Origin: Hydrolagus colliei
Lineage: Eukaryota
Reading direction: 5' to 3'
Assembly (NCBI GenBank): GCA_035084275.1
Contig: CM068750.1
Coordinates: 4,278,001-4,342,000, forward strand
DNA length: 64,000 nucleotides
In this document: in pieces, positions 5,401-58,910 of the stretch
How positions within the stretch are numbered: position 1 is the first letter of the stretch
How the letters are laid out: every line of letters begins with the position of its first letter
Translations under genes and position numbers: made by a program
The notes under the pieces: generated by a model
What the model was told of the DNA's origin: nothing
The model's input: the letters and a program-made list of their open reading frames with translations, nothing else
The model's database searches: none

Positions 5401-5622
5401 TCAGTGCCAAACTTTGATTTCTCCACTCCAGTCACAAGTTGCAATAATAGAAGGGTGTACAGGGTGAAAGGAAACGTCAACACAGGCCTCTCGGTGAGCA
5501 GGCAAAGTACGGATGAGTTTTGAATTCAGGTAGTTGTAAAAGTAAACTGTCCCGTCAGCACTTCCAGTAGCAATTAGGGTCCCATCGGGTGAAAATTCGC
5601 AGCCCACTGCATAGCCTTCCAC
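5401..5622 (-). CDS. WDR25: WDR25 last coding exon (WD40 repeats, stop TGA)
   Basis: ttacag|GTG; VEGYAVGCEFSPDGTLIATGSADG...IATCDWSGEIKVWH*; 222 nt. Confidence 0.93.
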   Translation of the reverse strand: MEGYAVGCEFSPDGTLIATGSADGTVYFYNYLNSKLIRTLPAHREACVDVSFHPVHPSIIATCDWSGEIKVWH

Positions 5623-5719
5623 CTGTAACATAGGGAGAAAGTTCATGAATGCTTGGTGGTGATCATTCAAGGAATAAAATACAGATTTCTTCATATAGTG
5701 CTGTGATGGATAACAGCAA

Positions 5720-5995
5720 CAACAACAAATTACATTTGTAGAGCACCTTTCTGGTCTGAAGAACGTTGGGACAGTTAAGGGTTTACACCTGAGTTGGGGG
5801 ATTGGAATCAAGAAAGTTGGAGTGGCTGTGGGGAGGAGGAGGAAAATATTAAAGGCACATTCAAAGAGGAAGATCTTGAGACGGCTTTAAAAGATAAAGG
5901 AGATGGTCAGATGCAGTGGAGGGGGCTCTGGGATTGAGTTCCAGATGGTGGGGGTAGAAACCTGATCACTAATGATGCGGTGGTAGGGAGGGGAC
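5720..5995 (-). mobile_element. Degenerate L2 3' remnant
   Basis: (AAC)n tail, GATCTTGAGACGGCTTTAAA and GGATTGAGTTCCAGA blocks. Confidence 0.55.
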
Positions 5996-8449: not shown

Positions 8450-9438
8450 CTGTGAGGGAATGGGATGGAGAAGGAGTTTTGATGTTACACTTATTTAATC
8501 TTTTACAGTACTTTTTTTTAAAAAAACATAAAATTGCCAATTACTGCTAATTTCTGTGGACTCCAGGTGTTTCAGCAATTGAATTGAATAGAAAAATAAT
8601 GTCCAGTCTTTTTCTATTCTCCTTTCCTTAGAATAAGAGAGAGAAATAAGACGATTTGGCCCTTTATTCTAAGACACCACAGGAAACTACTGACTGCCCC
8701 TCAAACGTATAGTTATTTGGCATACAGTAGTTATACATTTTTGCTTTGGGAAAGTAAAGATCCTGATTTTTATTAAATCATTGTATCTAATCCGTTTGTC
8801 TAAAAACCCCCCAGTAAAATCCTGTGAAGTGTTTTGGGACGTCCTCACAACACGAAAGGCAAATGCAAGGATTGTTATTATTATAATCCAGTGAAACATA
8901 TGATTAACATCGATAACAAAATAAATCCCCCGTTAATTTTCTTCTCAGTTAAATAACCTTGAGGTTCCTTTGTCGCTGTCAGAATCTAAATTGATTATGA
9001 ATTTCTCGGAAGACATTTCTACGATAGATCTTTACTGGTAAAAAATAAATAGATGTAATGTTATGTGCTAACATAACAATCCATAGAAAGATTTAGATTT
9101 AGTAATGGTCATATTCTGACACTGATTGACGTGCGACTGAAAACTGGATCGTTAGTATTGCCAGTGCTACAGGGAGAATCACAAGTACTGCATTGGCAAT
9201 TTACTGTAATAGTGTTATATGGATTATACCACAGGAGAGAGATTCAACCACAAGCAAGTTCCTTCTCATTATTTAGTCGAATGAACGGCAGTGGCAGGAA
9301 AGATTCAGTACTGGTTATGTTACTCCAGCATCTTGTGTGGGTGCAATAAAAAATAAAATTGCTCGGGTCAATGGACACCAAAGGAGTCCACTGTACAGGG
9401 TGACTTTGACGAAGAAATAATAACCCTGTTGACCTTAC

Positions 9439-9609
9439 ATGAAAAATCTGATTGGAGATTTTTGCAGACGTCTGGAAATCCCAAGCAATAACAGTTCTGT
9501 CTGCTGAGTCTCTGCTGGCCACATCTGTGCTGGTAACAAACTCCTTTCCGCCCGGAAGGAAAAGAATGTCAAGTGTTTGCTGTATTCCAGCACTGTATTC
9601 GTTGACTAC
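9439..9609 (-). CDS. WDR25: WDR25 coding exon 4
   Basis: tgcag|GTA...CAT|gtaagg, 171 nt; [57 protein letters not shown]. Confidence 0.93.
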
Positions 9610-9644
9610 CTGCAATAAAAGAGTTAATAAACATTAACTACAGA

Positions 9645-24186: not shown

Positions 24187-24477
24187 CAATAGTGTCAGAA
24201 TTCATATTTTAAAGATTAGAATGCACCATAAAATACACAATTTAATCCACACCAGCCTCAAGATAATGTTCCAATAATACTAGTTCAAAATGAAACATAA
24301 TAGGTTGCTTTTGTTATAGTGAAGTCTTAATGACATAATTAAAAAACTACAAATCAAGGAACATCTGCAAGAAAATCTGCATTTTCTAATCATCGATATA
24401 TCGGCCGATATGAGTAAAACGAATAATACCACAGTGCACAACATAAAGCTGAACAAAGCGTCTCCACTTGTTGGTAC

Positions 24478-25236
24478 CTTTAAGGACTTGTCCATGGAAG
24501 CGGAGAGAAGCAAGTGACTGTGTTGCTGGACTGGACACCACTGTATTTTATTCACTGGCCCACTGTGCTCACCCATCTGAAACAAGCAGCGCTTTGGAAT
24601 TTCTGAAGTTTTGGAATGCTTCTCCAAATAGGGCTGAATAAAGTCAGAAACTCTGCTCGTCGCGTTTGACGGCTGATCTTCCGAAGCCGTGTATTTTTGC
24701 TCCGAGGTTAGAGCTTCGGTGTGGTCCACCGTTGCGGAGTTGGTGTAAGACACCGCCTGCTCCCGCCTCACTCTCTTCGGTACGTAAGGTCTAATGTTTC
24801 CGGGGGCTCCCACAGAGTCTTGAAAAGATGACCTTTTCCGAACGCAGGAGATCACCTTTGCCGGAAGTTTGTTACATTTCTGCGCCCGACTCAATAAATT
24901 TGGAAGACCCCTTTTAGAAAAAATGGGAGGTCCCTGTTGAGGATGTGCTTGATGGGTCATGGTGGTGTCTGGAGATTTGGGAGCCGTCTGAACGTTTATC
25001 CGAGGAACGTTCCGTTTGTTTGGGGCCGTGTGACCTGCGCTCAAATCTCCCGGTGAGGAATTTCCCATCGCCCAGTCGGAAGTAGATTTCGACCGCCCAG
25101 CCTTCGGCGCCACTCGCTGGAAACGGGATTCGGGCTTAACAATAAGATCACCTTCTCTTCCAAGGCACCCGTCAGCCCCGCATTCGTCATTGTCTGTCTC
25201 TGAACCCGAGGACTCATAGGCAACCAGAGAATTCAT
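24478..25236 (-). CDS. WDR25: WDR25 first coding exon (disordered N-terminus plus first WD repeat); in-frame upstream ATGs at 25299 and 25308 could extend it by up to 24 aa
   Basis: MNSLVAYESSGSE start motif, IRPYVPKR motif, HSGPVNKIQWCPVQQHSHLLLSASMDKSLK|gtacca donor. Confidence 0.9.
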
Positions 25237-25414
25237 GTTGTTTTGTAATATACCGGATGATGACGGACCCAATGTCGTTTCCAATTCATGGGCTTTCATC
25301 CGAAACATGGAACTGACCCTCCCTCCACCTACAGTCTGAAATGGCCACCAGCTCTGCCGTGGCTCGCTCTACTCTCTAAACTTGAGGTTGCTCTCCGGCT
25401 TGCTCTTTAACATC

Positions 25415-26447
25415 TCTCAGTTACCCTCTATTACTTTCTGAGTTACTCTCTGTTACTCTATTATTCTCTGAGTAACTGTCTTATCACACACCGGGTTACG
25501 CTCTGTAACTCTCTCTGTTATTACACCCCGGGTTACTCTCTCTCTCTATTACTCCCCAGGTTACTCTCTCTCTATTACTCCCTGGGTTACTCTCTCTCTA
25601 TTACTCCCTGGGTTACTCTCTCTCTCTATTACTCCCTGGGTTACTCTCTGTTACTTCCCAGGTTACTCTCTCTCCACTACTCCCCAGGTTACTCTCTCTC
25701 TCTGTTACTCCCGGGTTACTCTCTCTGTTACTCCCCGGGTTACTTTCTCTCTCTCTCTCTGTTACTCCCCGGGTTACTCTCTCTCTCTCTGTTACTCCCC
25801 GGGTTACTCTCTCTCTCCCTATTACTCCCCGGGTTACTCTCTCTCTCTATTACTCCCCGGATTACTCTCTCTCTCTCTCTCTATTACTCCCCGGGTTACT
25901 CTCTCTCTCTCTCTCTATTACTCCCCGGGTTACTCTCTCTCTCTCTATTACTCCCCGGGTTACTCTCTCTCACTCTCTCTCTATTACTCCCCGGGTTACT
26001 CTCTCTCTCCCTATTACTCCCCGGGTTACTCTCTCTCTCTCTCTATTACTCCCCGGGTTACTCTCTCTCTCTCTCTCTCTCTATTACTCCCCGGGTTACT
26101 CTCTCTCTCTCTCTATTACTCCCCGGGTTACTCTCTCTCTCTCTATTACTCCCCGGGTTACTCTCTCTCACTCTCTCTCTATTACTCCCCGGGTTACTCT
26201 CTCTCTCTATTACTCCCCAGGTTACTCTCTCTCTCTCTCTCTATTACTCCCCGGGTTATTCTCTCTCTCTCTCTATTACTCCCCGGGTTACTCTCTCTCT
26301 CTCTCTCTATTACTCCCCGGGTTACTCTCTCTCTCTCTCTATTACTCCCCGGGTTACTCTCTCTCTCTCTCTATTACTCCCCGGGTTACTCTCTCTCTCT
26401 CTCTCTCTCTATTACTCCCCGGGTTACTCTCTCTCTCTCTCTCTCTG
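25415..26447. repeat. Compound minisatellite with unit TTACTCCCCGGGTTAC(TC)nTA
   Basis: Dozens of tandem units with a variable internal (TC)n tract; degenerate on the left, homogeneous on the right. Confidence 0.95.
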
Positions 26448-26449
26448 TT

Positions 26450-27060
26450 TATTACTTTGACACTTCGTCCCGTTTAGTTCAGTTCCGGTGGAGAAACACA
26501 CCCGGATGTGGGTCCGTCGCTCTAATGTGTCCGATGTGCAACCGTTTCCCCCCCATTCCCCCCCAGCCCAGCCAGGAGCAACGGGTTTGTCTGTGTGAGT
26601 GAGAGGGAGTGAATGAATGATTGAGTGAATGTGTGAGGGAGTGAGTGAGTGAGGGAGTGCGGGGGGGGAGGGGGGGGGGGGGGGGAGTTCGCTGGGCGAG
26701 TGTGAGCCGCGCCGCCGCCGGGAGCTGATGCAATGAGTCCCGGAGGCGGCTCCTGTCAAAGGCCCCGGTCACTGACTGACACTGACACTGACTGACTGAC
26801 GGCAGGAACTTGTGGCACAGACACCTCCCTGACTGTACCACCACACACTCTCCCCCCCCCCCCCCCCCCCCCCAGCCTCCCAGCCAACAACAACAACAAC
26901 AACAGCTACACTTGTATATCGCGAAAGGTGATACACAAGTGTAGCTGTTGTTGTTGTTGTGGCTGCTGGTGTTTTGCTGATTGGATCTCCACAGCGAAAC
27001 CTTTAAACCGGTCACCTCCCCCCCCCCCCCCCCCCCCCCCGAGGAGGGTTCGGGCAAAAT
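26450..27060. promoter_or_regulatory. Probable bidirectional WDR25/WARS1 promoter with non-coding first exons (GC/CpG-rich)
   Basis: Lies between head-to-head coding starts; locally CpG-rich; ETS-type TTCCGG/CCGGATGT motifs near 26483-26509; long G and C runs; exact TSS and exon borders not determined. Confidence 0.6.
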
Positions 27061-35613: not shown

Positions 35614-35900
35614 TCATTCCTTTAAGATGAGTTTATTGAGGAGCTGCAACACATATTCATAAGTCACAAAGGTCACGCCGTTCACTGGAAATGCGCGCAA
35701 ACAGTTCAAAGTCAGGCCCTTGAAGAAAACTCTAATGCCCTCATGCCTGAAGCTTTCGGTAATACAGTTCAATACACCAGTGTATCTCTGCTTTCCCATG
35801 CCATCCACCTGCATACGAGACTTCATGACATCCATCGGGGTTGCCAATGCCCAGTAGGTCATTCCCGAACACCCTCCAGCCAGCAACATGCCCGACCAAC
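35614..35900 (-). CDS. SLC25A47: SLC25A47 last coding exon (third carrier repeat, stop TGA)
   Basis: ccgcag|GT TGG; MLLAGGCSGMTYWALATPMDVMKSRMQVDG...LRAFPVNGVTFVTYE; PX[DE]XX[KR] motif PMDVMK. Confidence 0.9.
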
Positions 35901-36742
35901 CTGCGGAGAGACAAGGCTATTGATTATTTACAACTGGAAATATTTTCTCCAATTTAGACAAACGGCTCCCCAAATCTCTCACTTGACCCAAGCCTAAAGC
36001 TGCCCATATACAAAGGTATCTATTTAGCTGGTTGCCCTAGAACCACATTACCAGACTAATTGTCTTTTACGCACTAAAACGTGGCCGGTATAATGACACA
36101 AACCCACACGGTAAGATACCACCATTGAACATAATTATTCGAATACAAAATCAATCAGTTGTAATAGCCCAATGAAGACAACAAAGTGCTTTGAGACTTA
36201 CTCCTGATGTGAAAGGTATATAAATATATTATGTATTGTATAAATCTCACAGTTAACAGAACATTAAGTATCCTAGCAGATATTGCATCACCCACATGTA
36301 CAGTACAATCACACTTATGAGAGGATATTTCTATGGTCAGCTATGCCTCACTGTTTTCACGAACTTACAAATGAAGAAACCACCTCCTAATTCTGAATGT
36401 TTGTACTACTGTATAAGTCAGGATGCAGTCAGATAAATCCCATTGTTAGCCGTCTGTCCAATTTCCCCCGCATATCTTCTGTAAGATGTTTTATGTTATC
36501 TTAACTATCGTTATATCTATCGTCCAGCGCCTTCGGACATCCTCCCTACGTGAAAGGCGCTCTATAAATGCAATTTTGTTGTTGTTGTAGGCTCAGTGTT
36601 CCAATTACAGCATAAACACTGAGCTCTCCTACGTCAAATGACAGTTTGATTAACAATCTCAAGGTTGTACTTGTACATGCATCTATTTCAGTAAAACTGT
36701 AATTCCAAATAAAACCAAGCCCCTTTTTGTTTCAATAAATAC

Positions 36743-37025
36743 CTCTGGAGTCTTGTCCTTCTGGAGTCAACCATTCAGTAAAAATGGAGTAAGACAGAAA
36801 GTATAATCCAAAACAAGGGATGTCCCTCAGCCACAGAGCAGTAATACCTCGATAAAGTCCACGTATCCCTTCCTCACTCAGTATTGTCATCAGGCAGTGG
36901 ATTGGACCTCGGTATTTGGCCTTTGATAACAGACCAACGGTTGCTGGGCCGTGGTAAGTGCTATGAGGATGAGTTTGGATCTGCTGCCTTATCTTGATCA
37001 GGTCAATAGGAGAAAACACGATAGC
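36743..37025 (-). CDS. SLC25A47: SLC25A47 coding exon 5
   Basis: ccag|GCT...AGA G|gtattt, 283 nt; PIDLIK signature, KYRGPIHCL, LWLRDIPCFGLYFLSY. Confidence 0.9.
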
Positions 37026-37196
37026 CTGGAAACATGCAGCAAAAACAAAAACAGACAAAAACAGACGCTTGCTTCGCGATGGCAGCTAAAGAGTTGAATC
37101 GCTTAATGGGATTGAGAATAAGGCACATATAATTAAGAGAAAAGATGCAAGCCTTGCAACTGGTCACTGAAAGTTCTCTTGTCAGTTGTTGAAAGA

Positions 37197-37501
37197 AATA
37201 ATAATCCTTGCATTTGAGACCGTGTCTTATGAAACCAATGAGACGTTTCAAAGCCTCCACAGAATATATTGTAAAGTGAATGGACTGTATATTTGGGGGC
37301 AAAACGCGGCAGCCAATTGTGTACGGCAGTGTCCCACAAACAGTCGTGGAATGAAGTGACCAATATATTTTTTTTTCTCTGAGGGATTATTATCAGGTGC
37401 GTGGAGGAAGGATACTTGCCCAAGGTTTCGCCTTGCCTGGAATCAAACCCAGGTCTCTCGCTTGTAAGATGAGTGCTGTAACCACTGAACTACAGGACTC
37501 C
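37197..37501 (-). mobile_element. tRNA-derived SINE, full length
   Basis: Reverse complement of head (CTACAGGACTCC), body and tail. Confidence 0.9.
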
Positions 37502-38270
37502 ACTCTGTTGCAATAATAAAGAATTTTTATTCTATGAAGATGGGAAGTCACAATACCGCATTACAATTTGCAGAGATCTTCCTTTAACCTACTTTTTTCC
37601 TGCATCTTGCGCTTTTAAGCCTTTCAATTTGTTGGTCATAGTATTTTTTCTTAAATAAAAGAAAGTATATCTCTCTCATTACCTGGGTACCCGATCTCCC
37701 AAAATAAAGCTCCACTGTATCAAATGCTTCTATTTTGTAGAGATGGAATAACAGTGCGTAATACGGGCAATTGAGGAATTTAAACCAACAGCCACACAAT
37801 AATTAATGAGCATCACAAAGCTCCTCCGCTTTTGGCTGCCGTAATGAGGTTTGGAAGATGTTTTAAATGAGTGATCTTCAAAGAATAGCTCAAAACGTAT
37901 GGGCAATTCCACAGTCCACAGATCCAGCTTTAGTGGTAGCACTATTATCCGTTGTCCCACCAGGAGAGAAGCATAAAAGGATGAACTGCAAACCAGCTGT
38001 AATTCAAATTTGTCTGTTCACAAGACCTGAGATCAGATCCATCATAAACCTACATTGTTCTGAATCTACTGCAGTTCAGACATCATTTTAACATTTTAGG
38101 CATTATATGAGCTTGTATGGATCTGTTACATCTGCGGTAACTTTCCAGTGGTGTGCTGGGTTCAGAATTAAAAATCACACTAATTTCCTGATCAAGTACA
38201 TCTCTAAGCCCTGAAATCAGCTGAATAATTCCTCCCCATGTGTGTAGCAATTTGGTTACAAACAAAGTAC

Positions 38271-38453
38271 CTCAGCGGTTCCTGCACAGCAGCCAGCGAC
38301 AAAAACATCGAATCTGGATGGTTTCGCCTCTGAGCTCCCGTGTCGCAAGGTGCATAAGTAATGAAGGCAATTTCTGTATGTGCCAAAACAAACTGAGCTG
38401 CACACGGACACGGACAGAACAGGCAACGCCATTCCTTTGTAAAATCCACGAAC
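38271..38453 (-). CDS. SLC25A47: SLC25A47 coding exon 4
   Basis: 183 nt; VRGFYKGMALPVLSVSVCSSVCFGTYRNCLHYLCTLRHGSSEAKP resembles the SLC25A47-specific SSVSFGTYRHCL...RYGNPDAKP (recalled). Confidence 0.9.
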
Positions 38454-38599
38454 CTGGGGAATAGAGAATAACATGAGAAGGTATGGAATGAGGAAACGTT
38501 CGCTTTACAGACACCAAAAAGCTACCGTTCTTGTGGAATTCGACTCACAGAGTCTCCCCTGTTCCAACATAATCTAACACCCAACTGACCATGACATCT

Positions 38600-38940
38600 C
38601 CACTTTTTAAACCTCTCCTCAGTCAGGGTGAGACCCAAGCAAGGGAGAGGGGCAGGATAGGGAGGAGGGGAGGGAGTGAGTTGGGAGGGTAGGGGAGTGG
38701 AGGGAGAGTGATGGGAAGGCGGCAGAAGGCACGATCGAAGAGGAGGATCTTGAGACCATCCTTGAAGGAGGTGAGGGAGGGAGCGAGGCAAAGGGACTGT
38801 GGGATGGAGTTCCAGAGTGTGGGAGCAGAGAGGCTGAAAGGCGGGGGACATGGAGCAGACCATAGCCTGCTGAACGGAGGGGACGGGGAGGTTCATATGG
38901 GAATAGAAGCTGAAGGGTATGGGCACGCCACAAAGCATTA
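38600..38940 (-). mobile_element. L2 LINE 3' remnant
   Basis: Reverse complement of the same ORF2 end (GGGATGGAGTTCCAGAG, GATCTTGAGACCATCCTTGAAGG). Confidence 0.72.
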
Positions 38941-39019
38941 CAATTCACAGTGGGTAGATTCCTTCTTTTGAAACACCATTCAAACGTATCGCAAATGGGA
39001 CCCCAAAACTGCCATTTAC

Positions 39020-39091
39020 CTTTTCTCTCTGGTAGGTTGATCGAATACAGTGCCATACACCAGTGTACACCTGCTGAGTCTGAATTCTCAC
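39020..39091 (-). CDS. SLC25A47: SLC25A47 coding exon 3
   Basis: ccag|GTG...AAG|gtaaat, 72 nt; VRIQTQQVYTGVWHCIRSTYQREK. Confidence 0.9.
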
Positions 39092-39173
39092 CTGGAAAAA
39101 CAGTTGGTTATTAACTATTGTCTCAAAATTCAATACAAATGCAAAATAACTACGAGTTAAATATAATATGTAC

Positions 39174-39217
39174 CTTGATTGTATCCAAGGGATATCCTAC
39201 TATAGTAGCAAGTCCAC
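39174..39217 (-). CDS. SLC25A47: SLC25A47 coding exon 2
   Basis: cacag|GT...AAG|gtacat, 44 nt; GLATIVGYPLDTIK carrier signature. Confidence 0.9.
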
Positions 39218-40460: not shown

Positions 40461-41822
40461 TATCATAGAATCATAGAATCATAGAATCATAGAATTTTAC
40501 GGCACAAAAGGAGGCCATTCGGCCCATCTAGTCTGTGCCGGCTCTTTGAAAAGAGCGATTCAATCCCATTGCCCTGCCCGCTCCCCATAGCCTAATAGAC
40601 CCGTTCTTCCTAAATAAAGATCTAATTCCCTTTTAAAAGTTGTTATCGAATCAGCCTCCACCACCTTTTCAGGCAATGCATTCCAGATTCGAACAACTCG
40701 CTGAGTGAAAAAATTTCTCCTCAGCTCCCCTCTACTGCGCCTTGAAACTATTTTAAATCTGTGACCACGAGTCACAGATTCACCCACGAGTGGAAATAGT
40801 TTTTCTCTATTTGCCCTGTCGAAACCCCTCATGATCTTATAAACCTCTATTAGGTCTCCCCTCAATCTTCTCTGCTCCAGAGAGAATAACCCTAGCCTAT
40901 CTAGCCTCTCCTCATAGCTGAAGTCCCTCAATCCTGGCACCATCCTAGTAAATCTTCGTTGTACCCTTTCCAATGCCTTCACATCCTTTCTGTAGTGTGG
41001 TGACCAGAATTGAACACAGTATTCCAGCTGAGGCCTCACCAAAGTCCTATAGAGGTTAGTCAGCACTTCCTGACTTTTGTACTCTATACCCCTATTTATA
41101 AAGCCTAGTATCCCATATGCCTTCTTAACAGCCTTGTCTACCTGTCCTGCCACCTTCAACGAGTCACTAACACAAATCCCCAGGTCTCTCTGTTCCTTCA
41201 CACCATTTAAAATTGTACTATCTAGCCTATATTGCCTCCCTTCATTTCTTCTCCCAAAATGCATCACCTCACACTTCTCTGCATTAAACTTCATCTGCCA
41301 TGTGTCTGCCCACTTTACCAATTTGTCTATATCCTCTTGCAGATGGCTACTATCCTCCTCACTGTTTACTATTCTCCCTAACTTAGTGTCATCTGCAAAC
41401 TTGGAAACTGTACTCCGTACACCCAAGTCCAGATCATTGATGTAGATTACAAACAGCAATGGTCCCAAAACCGATCCCTGTGGCACACCACTGCTCACTT
41501 CCCTCCAATCTGAAAAACAGCCGCTCACTACAACTCTCTGCTTTCTGTCTCGCAGCCAGTTGTGGATCCACGTTGCCACTGTCCCTTTTACGCCATGGGC
41601 CTTTAATTTCTTAATAAGTCTCTCATGTGGCACTTTGTCAAATGCCTTTTGAAAGTCCATGTAAACTACATCAACTGCGCTACCATTATCCACCCATTCC
41701 GTTACCTCATCAAAAAATTCTATCAGATTTGTAAGGCAAGATTTGCCTTTAACAAATCCATGTTGACTGTCCTTTATTAGCCTATATCTTTCTAAGTGAA
41801 GATCTACCTTGTCCCTGATATG
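40461..41822 (-). mobile_element. CR1-clade LINE, 5'-truncated, with open RT/ORF2 C-terminal frame
   Basis: Uninterrupted frame with QHGFVKGKSCLTNL, YMDFQKAFDKVPH, GVPQGSVLGP and KFADD; 3' terminal (ATTCTATG)n repeat at 40461-40495, typical of CR1; lies in SLC25A47 intron 1. Confidence 0.95.
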
Positions 41823-42479
41823 AAACATATCCCTAAAGAAATCCTGTGTGCTGTTTACTTGGTGAGTCATGAACGTATTGTAAGCACTGTATAAACTAGG
41901 CTTTCTTTTAGTGCTGTGAAGGTAAGCAAGGAAGATAATAATAATCATAATAATCCTTGCATTTGATATAACGCCTTTTCATGTCGTGCTTCACAGATTA
42001 ACAACAACAACTTGGATTTTACAGATTATATTGTAAATGTGAATTGACTGTATATTTTGTGGGCGAAATTCGTCGGCCAATTGCATACAGCAGTAACTAG
42101 GTACGTATGTAAAAAGGTAACCAGCAGAGAAAGAGACAGAAAAGAAGCTGAAAGTTGAAAAAGTTGAAAACATCAATATTAATAAATCTTATTGCAATTA
42201 AACAATGGACTGAGAAATAAAATTTGACTTAAAATATTTAATACTTTGAGTTAGTAACCCTTAGACTCTTCCTTCATTCAAAACCAGTGGCTAAAAATAA
42301 AAACCCATGCAAAAAAAAAATAAATTGACTGTTGATCAGTAACAACAACAATATATACAGTATATAGAGTATATAGAACGGAGAAAATTTCCTAAAATAT
42401 GAATTCAGACCCTCTCATTCTGTGCTTTACTGTATGAGCGAATGAGTTTTCTTTTAGCAGATTAATTGGGATATCCCCA

Positions 42480-46999: not shown

Positions 47000-47372
47000 T
47001 CAGCAGGGGCTGTGGGCTTGAAGAGGAGCAGTCTCAAGAGTCACAGAAACACAGCCAATAGTGCGAGAGGCGGGTTGGCTGTGAGGGTGGGTGGTGTTGC
47101 TCTCTGGCTCTCGCCATTGGTTTGAGAACAGGGGGTAATAATCCAGGCTCGCTCGAAACAGAATACAGNNNNNNNNNNNNNNNNNNNNNNNNNNNNNNNN
47201 NNNNNNNNNNNNNNNNNNNNNNNNNNNNNNNNNNNNNNNNNNNNNNNNNNNNNNNNNNNNNNNNNNNNNNNNNNNNNNNNNNNNNNNNNNNNNNNNNNNN
47301 NNNNNNNNNNNNNNNNNNNNNNNNNNNNNNNNNNNNNNNNNNNNNNNNNNNNNNNNNNNNNNNNNNNNNNNN

Positions 47373-47589
47373 AAGGAGAGAGAGATAGACAGACCAAGAC
47401 AGAGAGAACGAGAACGGTTTGACTGTAAAGGAAAGACAGAGAGGGGAGGGAGGGATTAAGTGAGAGAGAGAGAGAGAGAAAGAGAGAGAAAGAAAGAAAA
47501 AGAGGGCAGTATAACTATTAGAGAGAGAGAGAGAGAGAGAGCGACAAGATAGAGAGAAGGAGTGAGTGAGAGGGAGAGGGAGAGTGTGA

Positions 47590-47641
<52 letters not shown>

Positions 47642-47687
47642 GACAGTATAACTGTTAAAGGAGAGAGAGAGAGAGACCGACAAGATA
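47373..47687. repeat. (GA)n/(GAAA)n microsatellite island between assembly gaps
   Basis: (GAAA)n at about 47588-47641; duplicated CAGTATAACT...(GA)n...CGACAAGATA unit. Confidence 0.9.
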
Positions 47688-48033
47688 NNNNNNNNNNNNN
47701 NNNNNNNNNNNNNNNNNNNNNNNNNNNNNNNNNNNNNNNNNNNNNNNNNNNNNNNNNNNNNNNNNNNNNNNNNNNNNNNNNNNNNNNNNNNNNNNNNNNN
47801 NNNNNNNNNNNNNNNNNNNNNNNNNNNNNNNNNNNNNCCATCATAGGTTTTATGTACATTTTGCAAAGCAGTCGCTGAGCTGCTACAGTCGGCACTGAGA
47901 GAGGGGGGGGAGTCAGTGGCCAGATTGGAGTGAACACGTTTCAAGGCTGATTGTTTGGTTGGTTGGGGGGAAGAGAGAAAAAAAACACACATTTTTTTGC
48001 TGCAATTCCAGTGGACAGGCCCTCAGCCTCGAT

Positions 48034-49030
48034 ACAGAGAGAGAGACAGGGAGAGACACACAGAGAGACAGGGAGAGACACAGAGAGACACAGGGAGAGA
48101 CACACAGAGAGACACAGGGAGAGACACAGAGAGAGACAGGGAGAGACACACAGAGAGACAGGGAGAGACACACAGAGAGACACAGGGAGAGACACACAGA
48201 GAGACAGGGAGAGACACACAGAGAGACACAGGGAGAGACAGGGAGAGACACAGGGAGAGAGACAGGGAGAGACACACAGAGAGACACGGGGAGAGACACA
48301 GAGAGAGAGACACAGGGAGAGACACACAGGGAGAGACACAGGGAGAGAGAGAGAGACACAGGGAGAGACACAGGGAGAGACACAGGGAGAGACACACAGA
48401 GAGACACACAGAGAGACAGGGAGAGACACACAGAGAGACACAGGGAGAGACACACAGAGAGACACACAGAGAGACAGGGAGAGACACACAGAGAGACACA
48501 GGGAGAGACAGGGAGAGACACAGGGAGAGAGACAGGGAGAGACACACAGAGAGACACGGGGAGAGACACAGAGAGAGAGACACAGGGAGAGACACACAGG
48601 GAGAGACACAGGGAGAGAGAGAGAGACACAGGGAGAGACACAGGGAGAGAGAGAGAGACACAGGGAGAGACACAGGGAGAGAGAGAGACACAGGGAGAGA
48701 CAGGGAGAGACACAGAGACACAGGGAGAGACACAGGGAGAGAGAGAGACACAGGGAGAGACAGGGAGAGACACAGAGACACAGGGAGAGACAGGGAGAGA
48801 CACACAGGGAGAGACAGGGAGAGAGAGAGAGAGACACAGGGAGAGACACACAGAGAGACACAGGGAGAGACACAGGGAGAGAGAGAGAGACGAGAGAGAC
48901 ACACACACACAGAGACACACACACACAGAGACTAGAGAGACACAGAGAGAGACTAGAGAGACACAGAGACACACACACACAGAGAGTATCTCTAGTGATA
49001 GTGATACAGAGAGAGAGGGAGAGAGAGACA
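48034..49030. repeat. About 1-kb purine-rich (GA/GACA/GGGA) satellite ending about 30 nt before the SLC25A29 ATG
   Basis: Units such as GGGAGAGACACA and GAGAGACACA with higher-order block duplications. Confidence 0.95.
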
Positions 49031-49059
49031 TTCTTGCAATTCAGAATTGACGTTGAGAA

Positions 49060-49093
49060 ATGGCATTGGATTTTGCTGCAGGATGCCTAGGGG
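49060..49093 (+). CDS. SLC25A29: SLC25A29 (mitochondrial basic amino acid carrier) first coding exon
   Basis: gaaATGG context; MALDFAAGCLG(G)|gtgagt, 34 nt. Confidence 0.9.
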
Positions 49094-50339
49094 GTGAGTG
49101 AGTCAGTCTGTTGTCTCTGTAATGTCTCTGTAATGTCTCTCTGCCTCTCTCTTCCGCGTGTGTGTCTCTCTGTGTTTCTCTCTTTGTCTCTGTCTGTGTG
49201 TCTCTATCTCTCTCCCNNNNNNNNNNNNNNNNNNNNNNNNNNNNNNNNNNNNNNNNNNNNNNNNNNNNNNNNNNNNNNNNNNNNNNNNNNNNNNNNNNNN
49301 NNNNNNNNNNNNNNNNNNNNNNNNNNNNNNNNNNNNNNNNNNNNNNNNNNNNNNNNNNNNNNNNNNNNNNNNNNNNNNNNNNNNNNNNNNNNNNNNNNNN
49401 NNNNNNNNNNNNNNNNNNNNNNNNNNNNNNNNNNNNNNNNNNNNNNNNNNNNNNNNNNNNNNNNNNNNNNNNNNNNNNNNNNNNNNNNNNNNNNNNNNNN
49501 NNNNNNNNNNNNNNNNNNNNNNNNNNNNNNNNNNNNNNNNNNNNNNNNNNNNNNNNNNNNNNNNNNNNNNNNNNNNNNNNNNNNNNNNNNNNNNNNNNNN
49601 NNNNNNNNNNNNNNNNNNNNNNNNNNNNNNNNNNNNNNNNNNNNNNNNNNNNNNNNNNNNNNNNNNNNNNNNNNNNNNNNNNNNNNNNNNNNNNNNNNNN
49701 NNNNNNNNNNNNNNNNNNNNNNNNNNNNNNNNNNNNNNNNNNNNNNNNNNNNNNNNNNNNNNNNNNNNNNNNNNNNNNNNNNNNNNNNNNNNNNNNNNNN
49801 NNNNNNNNNNNNNNNNNNNNNNNNNNNNNNNNNNNNNNNNNNNNNNNNNNNNNNNNNNNNNNNNNNNNNNNNNNNNNNNNNNNNNNNNNNNNNNNNNNNN
49901 NNNNNNNNNNNNNNNNNNNNNNNNNNNNNNNNNNNNNNNNNNNNNNNNNNNNNNNNNNNNNNNNNNNNNNNNNNNNNNNNNNNNNNNNNNNNNNNNNNNN
50001 NNNNNNNNNNNNNNNNNNNNNNNNNNNNNNNNNNNNNNNNNNNNNNNNNNNNNNNNNNNNNNNNNNNNNNNNNNNNNNNNNNNNNNNNNNNNNNNNNNNN
50101 NNNNNNNNNNNNNNNNNNNNNNNNNNNNNNNNNNNNNNNNNNNNNNNNNNNNNNNNNNNNNNNNNNNNNNNNNNNNNNNNNNNNNNNNNNNNNNNNNNNN
50201 NNNNNNNNNNNNNGTCCAGCTGCCGGCCTGGCCTCCCCCACAGTCCGGACCCTGAGTAAACCAGCGGCACCCCCCAGGTCTCTGGTTAGTGTTTAATCTG
50301 CCACGTCCCCCATTGCCCTGTTACTGCTCCACCAGCAGC

Positions 50340-50467
50340 CTCCCCCCCCCCCCCCACTGCCTCCCCCCCCCCACTGCCTCCCCCCCCCTCACTGCCTCCC
50401 CCCCCCACTGCCCCCCCCCCACTGCCCCCCCCCCCCCACTGCCTCCCCCCCCCCTCACTGCCCCCCC
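50340..50467. repeat. C-run minisatellite (C)nACTGC, G-quadruplex-prone on the minus strand
   Basis: Repeated poly-C tracts separated by ACTGC, running into a gap. Confidence 0.85.
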
Positions 50468-51872
50468 NNNNNNNNNNNNNNNNNNNNNNNNNNNNNNNNN
50501 NNNNNNNNNNNNNNNNNNNNNNNNNNNNNNNNNNNNNNNNNNNNNNNNNNNNNNNNNNNNNNNNNNNNNNNNNNNNNNNNNNNNNNNNNNNNNNNNNNNN
50601 NNNNNNNNNNNNNNNNNNNNNNNNNNNNNNNNNNNNNNNNNNNNNNNNNNNNNNNNNNNNNNNNNNNTGAATCTGATACTTTAGCAACCATTTTGAATAT
50701 CGTATGAGAAGCTCACCGAGGTTTGCTTTGCTACAGCTAAACCAATCCTGTGCTTTTCCTTTCCTTGTAAGCTTAGATGACGCACTTCAATTTAGCCTCC
50801 AACTTAATTGTTTCCCTTTCCCCTCACCCTGTTCCCACCCTGTTTCTTCCAAGAGACATTCTCCAAATTTGGTCAATAAAGCCATCAACATTCTGGAATA
50901 GTTTTCTCAATTCTAGGAAGCAATTTTGAGATTCCTTTACACTGCAATAGTCTACCTGAGAGGATATATTTAGTCCTTCATTTGCTTGATTGATTTATTG
51001 AGGCAAATTACCTATGAAACAATAATAATAATACTAATAATCCTTGCCTTTGATATATAGCGCTTTTCACATCTTCTGGAGAATACTGTATAGTAGAGAA
51101 TATAGTTCTATAACTATAACGATACTGGCAGCTTTAGCAATATTCTTTTTTCTGTGAAAATGTTTAATGATGGTATAACACTTGGATTTTTTTTATCATC
51201 GCTGAATAGAGATGAGGTAAATGGGTGGTAGTGGTGTTGCGGTGGAGCAAAGCATTAATTACCTTGTTCTAAATTAAGAGCATTCTGCCCGAGGAGACTA
51301 CGCATGTGAGTTTGACTTGTTAAAAAGATTTTATGGATCTGTTCTCTGTGTGGATGCCCAATGTTTGAACTGCTGAGCAAATCTGGACCAGCTGTACATC
51401 CTGCTATTGTCTTGGGTGGATCCATATTGCTCCTGTTACCATGTAAACACGTCAGGGATATGAGATTCTTTGGTAGAAAGACCAGTTTCGAATGTTGGCT
51501 TGAACATGTCGACTGGAGGTTTGGGGATTTTCATGCTTTATTCAGCCCCAAAGAAAATTCTTAGCATTTCAACAAAACTGGAATGAAAGGCGCTCGATAC
51601 ATATAAATTGTTACAACTGGCAGATTGTTTAGCAGAAGGTTAGTGGGAAAACTGAGGCCAGGAAAAGTAAAACAAGCAAATTATCTCCAATCCTATTTAA
51701 CAAAGTCTGAATTTTTATTCTGAATTTTTATCGTCTTTTTATTGCAGACGACGAATATCTTTCCTTTAGCTGAGAACCTGAAGAGTTTTTAAATTTTACC
51801 TATAGATAGCTGGTTCTTTTAACTTCTATTTGATGAGTTTAATCTGAGGACGACATATACTTGGAGTGATAC

Positions 51873-56868: not shown

Positions 56869-56952
56869 GTTCGACTTCAAGTACAAAATCCAGATAAGCC
56901 ACGTTATCGTGGGACTTTTCACTGTTTCCAGTCCATCATAAAACAAGAGTCG
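56869..56952 (+). CDS. SLC25A29: SLC25A29 coding exon 3
   Basis: tag|GTT...TCG|gtaagt, 84 nt; VRLQVQNPDKPRYRGTFHCFQSIIKQES. Confidence 0.94.
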
Positions 56953-57456
56953 GTAAGTCACCTCTATGCTTGTTCCTCAACAGTCAGCCATGGTCTCTGC
57001 CAAAGTGCTGAGTCTAATTCCTTGTCTAATGAACACTATGGGTGAATATACGAATGAGTCGGCAGGTAGAGATTGTTCCCGTTGCAGAACTGGGAAGATT
57101 CCAGATTTGATTCATGCTTATTAATACTATTTATTAATTCTTGCATTTGATAACCTCAGAAAACTGCAGGGTTGCTAGCTCTCGAGCTCTGTTTTCAAGT
57201 CAAATCACAAGTTACTGATTTGCCGTCCCAAATTCCTTTCCCATTATGTGTCTTGGCATGCATTTTTTATTCAGTTGACTCAAAGGTATGTCTGAACATG
57301 CGTGATGTTCCTGTATGTAATTTCAGTAGATAAGCAGTATTACAGTGTGTTGGAATCTTGTTATGATTATAATAATAATTATCCTTGCATTTGATACAGT
57401 GTCTTATCATGCCCACGAGATGCCTCAAAACCTCACAGAATATGCTGTAAAGTGAA

Positions 57457-57702
57457 ACAAAGACAGAAATGGCTGAGAATACTCAGCGGGTCAGGCAACA
57501 TCTATTGAGAAAGGAAAAGTGAGTCAACGTTGCAGGTCCATGACCAGTATTGTGTATTGTGTTCTGACGAAGGGTTGTGGACCCGAAACGTTGACTCAAT
57601 AGACTTCCTCAATAGATGCTGCCTGACCTGCTGAGTGTTCCCAGCCATTCCTGTTTTTGTTTCAGGTTTCCAGCATCTGCAGTAATTTAGTTTTGTTGTT
57701 GG
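57457..57702 (+). mobile_element. Non-autonomous fold-back element, Penelope-like pLTR derivative, with 14-bp TSD
   Basis: TGCTGTAAAGTGAA direct repeats at 57443-57456 and 57703-57716; about 90-bp imperfect inverted arms (57454-57545 vs 57572-57663); hammerhead core inside. Confidence 0.8.
57555..57601 (+). ncRNA. Putative minimal type I hammerhead ribozyme motif
   Basis: Stem I TATTGTGTT/GACTCAATA, core CTGACGA, stem II GGGT-TGTGG-ACCC, GAAA, minimal palindromic stem III region AACGTT; activity not shown. Confidence 0.6.
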
Positions 57703-58910
57703 TGCTGTAAAGTGAATTGACTGTATATTTTGTGGGGAAACAACTCGACAGCTAATTGTGCACAGCAGCGTCCCACAAACAGTCGTGGATTGAATGACCC
57801 AATTTTTATTTTTTTTGGGGGGGAAGGGATTATTACTCCCAGAAAATTAGCCAACTTTTCGCCCTTCCGGGGAATCAAAACCACATCTTCTCGCTTGCGG
57901 GGTGCGTGCCACTAAACTGCAAGACTCTATATGTACAGGAAACCAAAAAATGTATTCCGCTATTGGTTAATGTAGGGGTGTCATCCTGACGTGAAACATT
58001 TTGTTATTATTGTAAAGGGATGAATATCAAACCCTGTGTTTAATCTCGGGCGTGTTCTGAGAACAGAACCTTCATGCATTGTTGTGAGTTTCTGCCTTAA
58101 GACATGTCAGTCTGGCTCGGTTGGCAGGCTGTAGTAACCATATGTGCATCACACACAAGCTATTTTGGAGCGTTAGGCTCTGGAGTGAGACTGGCACAAA
58201 TGGAATATTTCTGTCTGTAGGATTGATGGCTGTGCTGGATTTAGCTGTGAGATACATTTCTGATTTGAAATGGGCTATTATTACTCGAGCTACTATTTGA
58301 TGTGACTGGGAGGTGTAGCACAGGCCTGTCAGATCCAGCCAATTGAAACGCTTGATGTACATAAAGGTTTAAGTCGAAACAATTTTGCAATAAATAAACG
58401 CAGGATTATAATGGGAAGGTGGTGACCCTTTTGGCAGGGCGAGCTCAAGTCAGCTGAGTCTGTTGTGAAATTGTGTCTGCCGGTTCCTGTCCTTGCCATT
58501 GCGTCTTAGTCATGGTGGATTTGAAGTGAAATTTTGATGCTGATTTGGGGGAAAATGACAATTCACCCACAAAATACTGTCTTCAGCCAATTCACTTTAC
58601 AATATATTCTAAGTGCTCCGGGCGGTGGTGGGGTGGGCCTTCATAAATGGAAGTTGTTGTTCTGCGAAGCGCTTTGAGATGTTTCAATGACACGATAAGA
58701 TGCTGTATGAAATGCAAGGATTATTATTATTTATTATTATTATCATGTGATGCAAACGTAATCTAATCCGACAAGTCTTCATGTGCTGAGGAGGAATGCA
58801 GGAGAGATTTAAGGTCATGGACCAACCAATGTTTTTTTTTGTATTTTGTCTGTGAAATTTTATTGAGACTTTTAAAAACAAAAAACTATTAATATCACAT
58901 TTTGTTCCAG

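Follow-up and report, generated by a model that had tools for sequence, protein, structure and literature searches.

How did a sequence that folds back on itself and carries a hammerhead ribozyme motif come to split a SINE in an intron of Hydrolagus colliei, and is the ribozyme likely to act there? To address these questions we analysed a window of 64,000 nucleotides around the locus; all coordinates are those of this window. We identify the host gene as SLC25A29 (mitochondrial basic amino acid transporter): its last coding exon encodes a product with 98% identity to this transporter of Callorhinchus milii and 84-87% to those of sharks. The last coding intron of this gene carries both the insert and the SINE that it splits. 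This SINE family has more than 20 copies within the window, and in an intact copy a tRNA head with A and B boxes is accompanied by an (ATT)n tail. The host SINE is likely a CmiSINE (SINE2-1_CM / SINE2B-1_CM), named here from the description in PMC5499810 and not from comparison with a consensus. The locus is laid out as follows.

56869-56952, plus strand: exon of SLC25A29
56953-58910, plus strand: last coding intron of SLC25A29, which houses the SINE and the insert
58911 onwards, plus strand: last coding exon of SLC25A29
57365-57456, minus strand: 3' part of the host SINE, tRNA-derived, with an (ATT)n-type tail
57443-57456, plus strand: left target-site duplication (TSD), from direct-repeat comparison
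57457-57545, minus strand: inverted arm, a 5'-truncated copy of 57573-57660 with no tail
57546-57560, no strand assigned: junction spacer, with GTATTGT twice, nearly private to the locus, giving the outer 5' strand of stem I
57561-57660, plus strand: sense, pLTR-like arm, the body of a high-copy repeat
57564-57592, plus strand (SLC25A29 sense strand): core of a minimal type I hammerhead, CTGACGA-A-GGGT..ACCC-GAAA-CG-TT
57661-57702, plus strand: tail of 42 nt, present at one end only and unpaired with the other arm
57703-57716, plus strand: right TSD, from direct-repeat comparison
57703-57900, minus strand: 5' part of the host SINE, with a decayed tRNA-like head

Elsewhere in the window lies a putative second mitochondrial carrier gene (35617-38990, minus strand; exon-like frames 35617-35916, 36735-37085 and 38948-39196), on the strand opposite SLC25A29 and convergent with it in type. 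An uninterrupted 472-codon LINE reverse transcriptase (RT) frame at 40563-41978 (minus strand), which we take to be that of a CR1-type LINE, suggests a young LINE copy in or near this second carrier gene. There are also a gene for a WD40-repeat protein (minus strand; exon-like frames 5404-5886, 9247-9633 and 24283-25368), long low-complexity tandem arrays at 25411-26460 and 47900-49090, and four N gaps within 47169-50667.

Is the insert a true insertion? The original prediction, made from the letters of this stretch, had placed 246 bp inside a SINE between perfect 14-bp TSDs. The direct repeats TGCTGTAAAGTGAA at 57443-57456 and 57703-57716 are indeed identical at 14 of 14 positions, with 246 nt (57457-57702) between them. 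We compared the site with the 20 other SINE copies in the window that match a degenerate pattern of the 14-mer. Each carries the 14-mer once, and the TSD is therefore genuine. Its second position, said to be G in both repeats where most copies differ, is A in 19 of the 20 and G in one (29644). Some 20 sister SINEs show what the site looked like before insertion, which fixes both junctions to the single base.

What then was inserted? Aligned with 57573-57660, the inverted arm gives 73 matches, 10 transitions, 5 transversions and 1 gap, so that the inverted partial pLTR foreseen for this locus is present. This arm terminates inside stem II of the hammerhead, without CUGANGA, and has GCAA in place of GAAA. 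The two arms are 89% complementary at 57453-57513/57604-57664 and 85% at 57520-57545/57573-57598, and the fold of the insert has a z of -14.6. In the tail, likeness to the family fades at about 57688, about 28 of the 42 nt following it. Counted from the predicted cut of the hammerhead, the two ends that bound the tail come 68 and 110 nt further on. Although the TSDs are identical, 15 of 88 aligned letters disagree between the arms, for which two slightly different templates may account. At the SINE rate of PMC5499810 the divergence would correspond to tens of millions of years, a hand estimate that assumes identical templates and no conversion. GTATTGT occurs twice in 57546-57563 and CAATAGA twice in 57597-57614, behind the cut site; both are private, and together they extend stem I.

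In PMC3846280 and PMC8557442, insertions of EN+ Penelope-like elements (PLEs) are described as an inverted truncated pLTR with an optional tail of 30-40 bp at one end and a TSD of 8-10 bp. The insert has the same layout: an inverted, 5'-truncated pLTR beside a direct one, a tail at one end and a TSD. We consider it very probable that this is a pLTR-only, 5'-truncated insertion of an endonuclease-bearing PLE (probably Neptune-type), the hammerhead being a relic of the parent RNA that is predicted to be inactive here.

How sound is the hammerhead motif? In strand order it reads CUGACGA, A, GGGUU-GUG-GACCC, GAAA, CG, UU. Both cores, CUGANGA and GAAA, are present, and stem II is closed by G10.1-C11.1 (57564-57588). 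Four pairs had been assigned to stem II; the stem is there, and the count is five, the fifth pair being U.G (the inverted arm has C at that place). A57571 is an unpaired nucleotide between 9 and 10.1, C57589-G57590 forms a palindromic 15.2-16.2 without loop III, and the NUH triplet is GUU, with the cut predicted 3' of U57592. In stem I, 57555-57563 pairs with 57593-57601.

A loose scan of the window for CTGA.GA..GAAA gave nine sites. Only that at 57564 passed a descriptor that requires both cores, at least 4 pairs in stem II, a paired 15.2-16.2, NUH and at least 3 pairs in stem I. This descriptor matched once in the real window (both strands) and in none of 200 dinucleotide shuffles, so the motif is not a chance occurrence. 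It also fits the consensus for PLE minimal hammerheads (min-HHRs), NNN CUGANGAH GNNNNN..NNNNNC GAAAN palindrome NUH NNN, which bears out its assignment to the minimal type I hammerheads of the Penelope kind. A check against Rfam models had been proposed as well; searched at E up to 10, the segment 56500-58700 matched no hammerhead family, the only matches being weak ones to hairpins (MIR831 with 35.8 bits, its gathering score being 100). The additional A after the core and the GUU triplet had been read as signs of a weak or dead copy. We reject that reading, since both are features of the class: in PMC4209133, PLE minimal hammerheads are characterised by a nucleotide that separates 9 from 10.1, by G10.1-C11.1 and by a palindromic 15.2-16.2, and many of those in its Fig. 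S3 have C-G-U-U.

Is the same core found elsewhere? A metagenome scan with the hammerhead core found 10 loci, which have only the core of ~30 nt in common with the insert and thus show the motif class, not the insert's family. Stem I was left out of the search pattern. Across the 11 sequences (insert and 10 loci), 75% of the 44 cells of its inner four pairs are paired, with 16 double-sided changes, the independent count being lower because L008/L009 and L006/L010 are near duplicates. None of 500 shuffles reaches either value, and slid registers give 30-48%. A Pfam scan of 8 frames picked from 6 of the 10 loci matched RVT_1 in L005, L006 and L007 and GIY-YIG in L006 and L007, every score lying below gathering. 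RT matches are thus confined to 3 of the 10 loci, and the L005 frame lies on the strand opposite the motif. In L006 the motif stands about 95 nt behind a broken RT and GIY-YIG frame. In L007 (10-2899, plus strand) an uninterrupted frame of 961 codons (RVT_1, E 5.6e-6; GIY-YIG, E 0.017) has the motif at its 5' end and contains, ahead of the GIY-YIG part, a cysteine-rich linker such as PMC8557442 describes for Neptune. The L007 protein has 111 homologues, with PF00078 in most. L007 is, in its own right, a PLE in a metagenome contig with a minimal hammerhead followed by an RT and GIY-YIG frame, apparently intact, and a candidate for in vitro study of Neptune-type elements. At L001:2781-3002, two tandem 110-nt repeats, 97% alike, stand immediately upstream of the hammerhead motif.

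Which part of the insert is repeated in the genome? The whole fold-back had been taken for a small mobile element. We sampled depth in contigs from four of the 19 runs listed, each run from a different named organism; the contigs were picked at 80% likeness to the insert copy, and the sense part was abundant in all four runs. Relative to unique flank, summed contig depth (an order of magnitude, not a copy number) reached about 21,000 over the hammerhead in run X1 and about 16,000 in X6, and about 86,000 (X1) and 65,000 (X6) over 57609-57635, against about 7 (X1) and 1 (X6) at the junction spacer. The SINE ratio in X1, 342,000, is near the 302,861 CmiSINEs published for C. milii (PMC5499810). 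Among the longest 32 of about 200,000 pieces listed, the span covered is 57560-57691 and none crosses the junction; the loose ends before 57561 in X6 agree at only 0.37. With depth high over the sense part and near single-copy over the junction, we conclude that the repeat unit is the sense part of ~130 nt (57561-57689), and that the fold-back is the product of a single insertion and not a mobile family. The fold-back as a mobile unit is rejected, its junction being nearly private to the locus.

The same data bear on stem I, originally described as nine imperfect pairs. Eight of the nine do form in this copy. However, the majority letters of the family differ from the insert at 57599 and 57601-57603, so that the outer part of the stem is private to the insert copy and a 9-bp stem I is rejected as a family trait. 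An A at 57560, in 57-66% of depth in all four runs, repairs the U.U mismatch in stem I. None of the 40 difference rows listed, of 107, falls in 57561-57598, among contigs preselected at 80% likeness. Both arms depart jointly from the family majority at 57506/57611 and 57471/57646, and these two common departures fit one template lineage.

Within the window, blastn and nhmmer searches for other copies returned the two arms only, plus a weak match at 9458-9528 (E 0.044). None of the contigs listed from related organisms spans the insert, and paralogous SINEs swamp the joint table; one X6 contig at single-copy depth covers the junction spacer, a weak hint that organism B (X6) has the insertion too. 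A literature search among open-access reports gave no description of the ~130-nt family, which may already be catalogued in Repbase/Dfam. A literature search for a hammerhead ribozyme in Callorhinchus found nothing. PMC4350176 counts elephant shark among 23 vertebrates with PLEs.

How might the inverted arm have arisen? When 57442-57456 is reverse-complemented and aligned with the first part of the tail (57661-57676), 13 of 16 columns are identical, and this match begins precisely where the inverted arm ends (57660/57661). It ranks first among the insert's 144 positions. At the same anchor its score is equalled by 2 of 19,514 random 15-mers from the window, in a test devised post hoc, after the match had been noticed, and at one locus. 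The G variant of the host SINE copy is the tail-like letter. One reading that the match suggests is annealing of the top target strand to the beginning of the tail, from where it primed the inverted cDNA; another is an endonuclease with a preference for tail-like DNA. In X1, one contig of single-copy depth matches 57604-57722 with 17 differing letters and 6 gaps and may hint, weakly at best, at another target/tail junction of this kind.

We propose the following sequence of events. A GIY-YIG/RT protein would cut both strands of the SINE, 14 nt apart. The bottom strand would prime cDNA at the end of the tail, yielding 57561-57702, and the top strand, its 3' end complementary to the tail start, would prime a second cDNA 42 nt further in, yielding 57457-57545. 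Both cDNAs would halt early, near the hammerhead, and a short filler would join them. The template RNA would not have cleaved itself, since the copy includes the core, which lies upstream of the cut site. According to PMC11167929, the anole PLE protein cleaves and extends both strands, and its RT starts at two internal sites bounding the tail on template RNA that is uncleaved. Unlike the match in the insert, however, those in vitro starts are at sites without homology to the cut DNA, which argues against the generality of target/tail priming.

Alternatively, the palindrome of stem II could have given rise to the inverted arm, through self-priming or a fold-back of the template, or one insertion could have followed another; the target/tail match would then be a coincidence or reflect a preference of the endonuclease for tail-like DNA. 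Self-priming at palindromes has been proposed for PLE inversions (PMC3846280), the short arm does end within stem II, and the D. virilis endonuclease does not cleave without its own tail (cited in PMC11167929). But self-priming gives no reason for the short arm to start exactly where the target/tail complementarity ends (57660/57661), and we think this alternative improbable, though not greatly so.

The source RNA might also have differed from the truncated PLE that we favour. The hammerhead unit of ~130 nt could be a dedicated short, non-autonomous element (a retrozyme-like monomer) mobilised in trans by a PLE, and not a truncated coding element. The longest pieces listed start at 57560-57581 and end near 57689, the low agreement of the X6 loose ends points to mixed upstream sequence, and retrozymes are reported as derivatives of PLE pLTRs, including in the one chondrichthyan sampled (10.64898/2026.07.22.740005). 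Mixed upstream ends, however, are given equally by 5' truncation, inversion and subfamilies. Moreover, tandem units define retrozymes, whereas the locus has no tandem array and the window holds one unit with one motif. A dedicated short element, which departs from the truncated-PLE reading in its source RNA only, is thus doubtful. For the truncated PLE we infer that it is tied to an autonomous RT/GIY-YIG element of the same genome. None with the ends of the insert was found in the searches made: the 111 PLE-like proteins gave no match in the window at E 1e-3, and their best match to the insert (E 0.003, internal RT region) was judged a chance one. A 22-nt motif from the body of the repeat was found at 0 loci in viral contigs and, in bacterial genomes, gave 2 matches of 22-23 nt that were also judged chance.

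Could the motif nevertheless be an active self-cleaving RNA in the SLC25A29 intron, as first envisaged? Its core is intact, stem I forms 8 of 9 pairs, its orientation in the intron is sense, and alone it is predicted to fold with both stems. Yet without loop III a monomer cannot form stem III, and the descriptor found no second hammerhead on either strand of the window. In equilibrium folding predictions, the pairing probability of the hammerhead stems is 0.68-1.0 without the inverted arm and 0.00 in the whole insert. The inverted arm is transcribed first, and forcing the hammerhead would cost 18.5 kcal/mol in the nascent RNA and 21.5 kcal/mol in the full insert. Once paired in the SLC25A29 pre-mRNA, the arms would make up a hairpin (about -134 kcal/mol) engulfing stem II, GAAA and stem I. 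Because the inverted arm is predicted to outcompete the hammerhead by about 21 kcal/mol and the window has no partner motif, the arm probably sequesters the ribozyme and cleavage of the pre-mRNA is unlikely. The intron would likely yield long double-stranded RNA rather than a working ribozyme. A protein-assisted or trans dimer may form; the self-duplex of the hammerhead is predicted to be weak (-1.7 to -3.5 kcal/mol). Dimeric PLE hammerheads were reportedly treated by Lunse et al. in 2017. Published behaviour points the same way as the folding: single min-HHRs gave no cleavage and dimers low cleavage (PMC4209133), 8 of 9 Xenopus retrozyme dimers were uncleaved (10.64898/2026.07.22.740005), and the anole hammerhead needed its protein (PMC11167929). 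An active ribozyme at this locus is very unlikely.

The intron also contains, on the sense strand of the element, a pyrimidine run ending in CAG (TTTTTGTTTCAG, 57651-57667), a possible cryptic splice acceptor; it sits at the base of the predicted hairpin.

A MITE or fold-back DNA transposon with an incidental hammerhead-like motif, which long inverted arms and a TSD might recall, can be set aside almost completely, because such an element is bounded by TIRs on both sides and recurs in many full copies, whereas here the right end is a 42-nt tail, so that the arms are not terminal there, the junction is nearly private while one arm is high-copy, and 200 shuffles produced no such motif.

What does the truncated PLE insertion add? 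PLE minimal hammerheads and inverted pLTRs with tails are already published, and a single locus with a probably inert copy is of little weight, useful as a compact, cleanly bounded example of a PLE insertion. The target/tail complementarity is the aspect most deserving genome-wide comparison. Should it recur across the genome, it would bear on how PLE inversions and one-sided tails form, a matter left unresolved in PMC8557442 and PMC11167929. Tentatively, and with less than even confidence, we sketch a wider picture for chimaeras. A hammerhead-bearing Penelope end would be present in tens of thousands of copies, its inverted pLTRs arising from double target priming; the main SINE, by mimicking the tail, would offer a recurrent landing site, and each insertion would silence its own ribozyme by means of the antisense arm.

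How does the insert compare with known systems? With the EN+ PLEs (Penelope/Poseidon, Neptune), such as Pen2a_Av (PMC3846280) and PAc/Poseidon_Ac (PMC11167929), it shares a head-to-head inverted, truncated pLTR, a tail at one end and a TSD, as well as a hammerhead about 70-110 nt upstream of the two ends on a template that, for the insert, would likewise have been uncleaved. It differs in lacking any coding frame, with a partner element that is putative, in a TSD of 14 bp and a tail of 42 nt, slightly above the published 8-10 and 30-40, and in target DNA complementary to the start of the tail.

With the metazoan PLE min-HHRs (PMC4209133) the motif has in common CUGANGA, one unpaired nucleotide, G10.1-C11.1, GAAA, a palindromic C-G at 15.2-16.2 without loop III, GUU as NUH and a short stem I. 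Its stem II, with 5 bp, is on the short side, the examples in the available portion of Fig. S3 of that paper include no chondrichthyans, and its fold is predicted to be blocked by the antisense arm. Like the non-LTR retrozymes (10.64898/2026.07.22.740005), the insert is short, non-coding and kin to PLE pLTRs, with a type I hammerhead. Retrozymes, however, are tandem arrays, whereas the insert is a single unit with an inverted fragment.

A parallel to the proposed mechanism is offered by L1. In its twin priming, an inverted cDNA starts from the second target strand after that strand has annealed to an internal part of the RNA, as would have happened here. In L1, however, the two cDNAs copy different segments, whereas both arms of the insert copy the same 88 nt, which would call for two templates or two passes.
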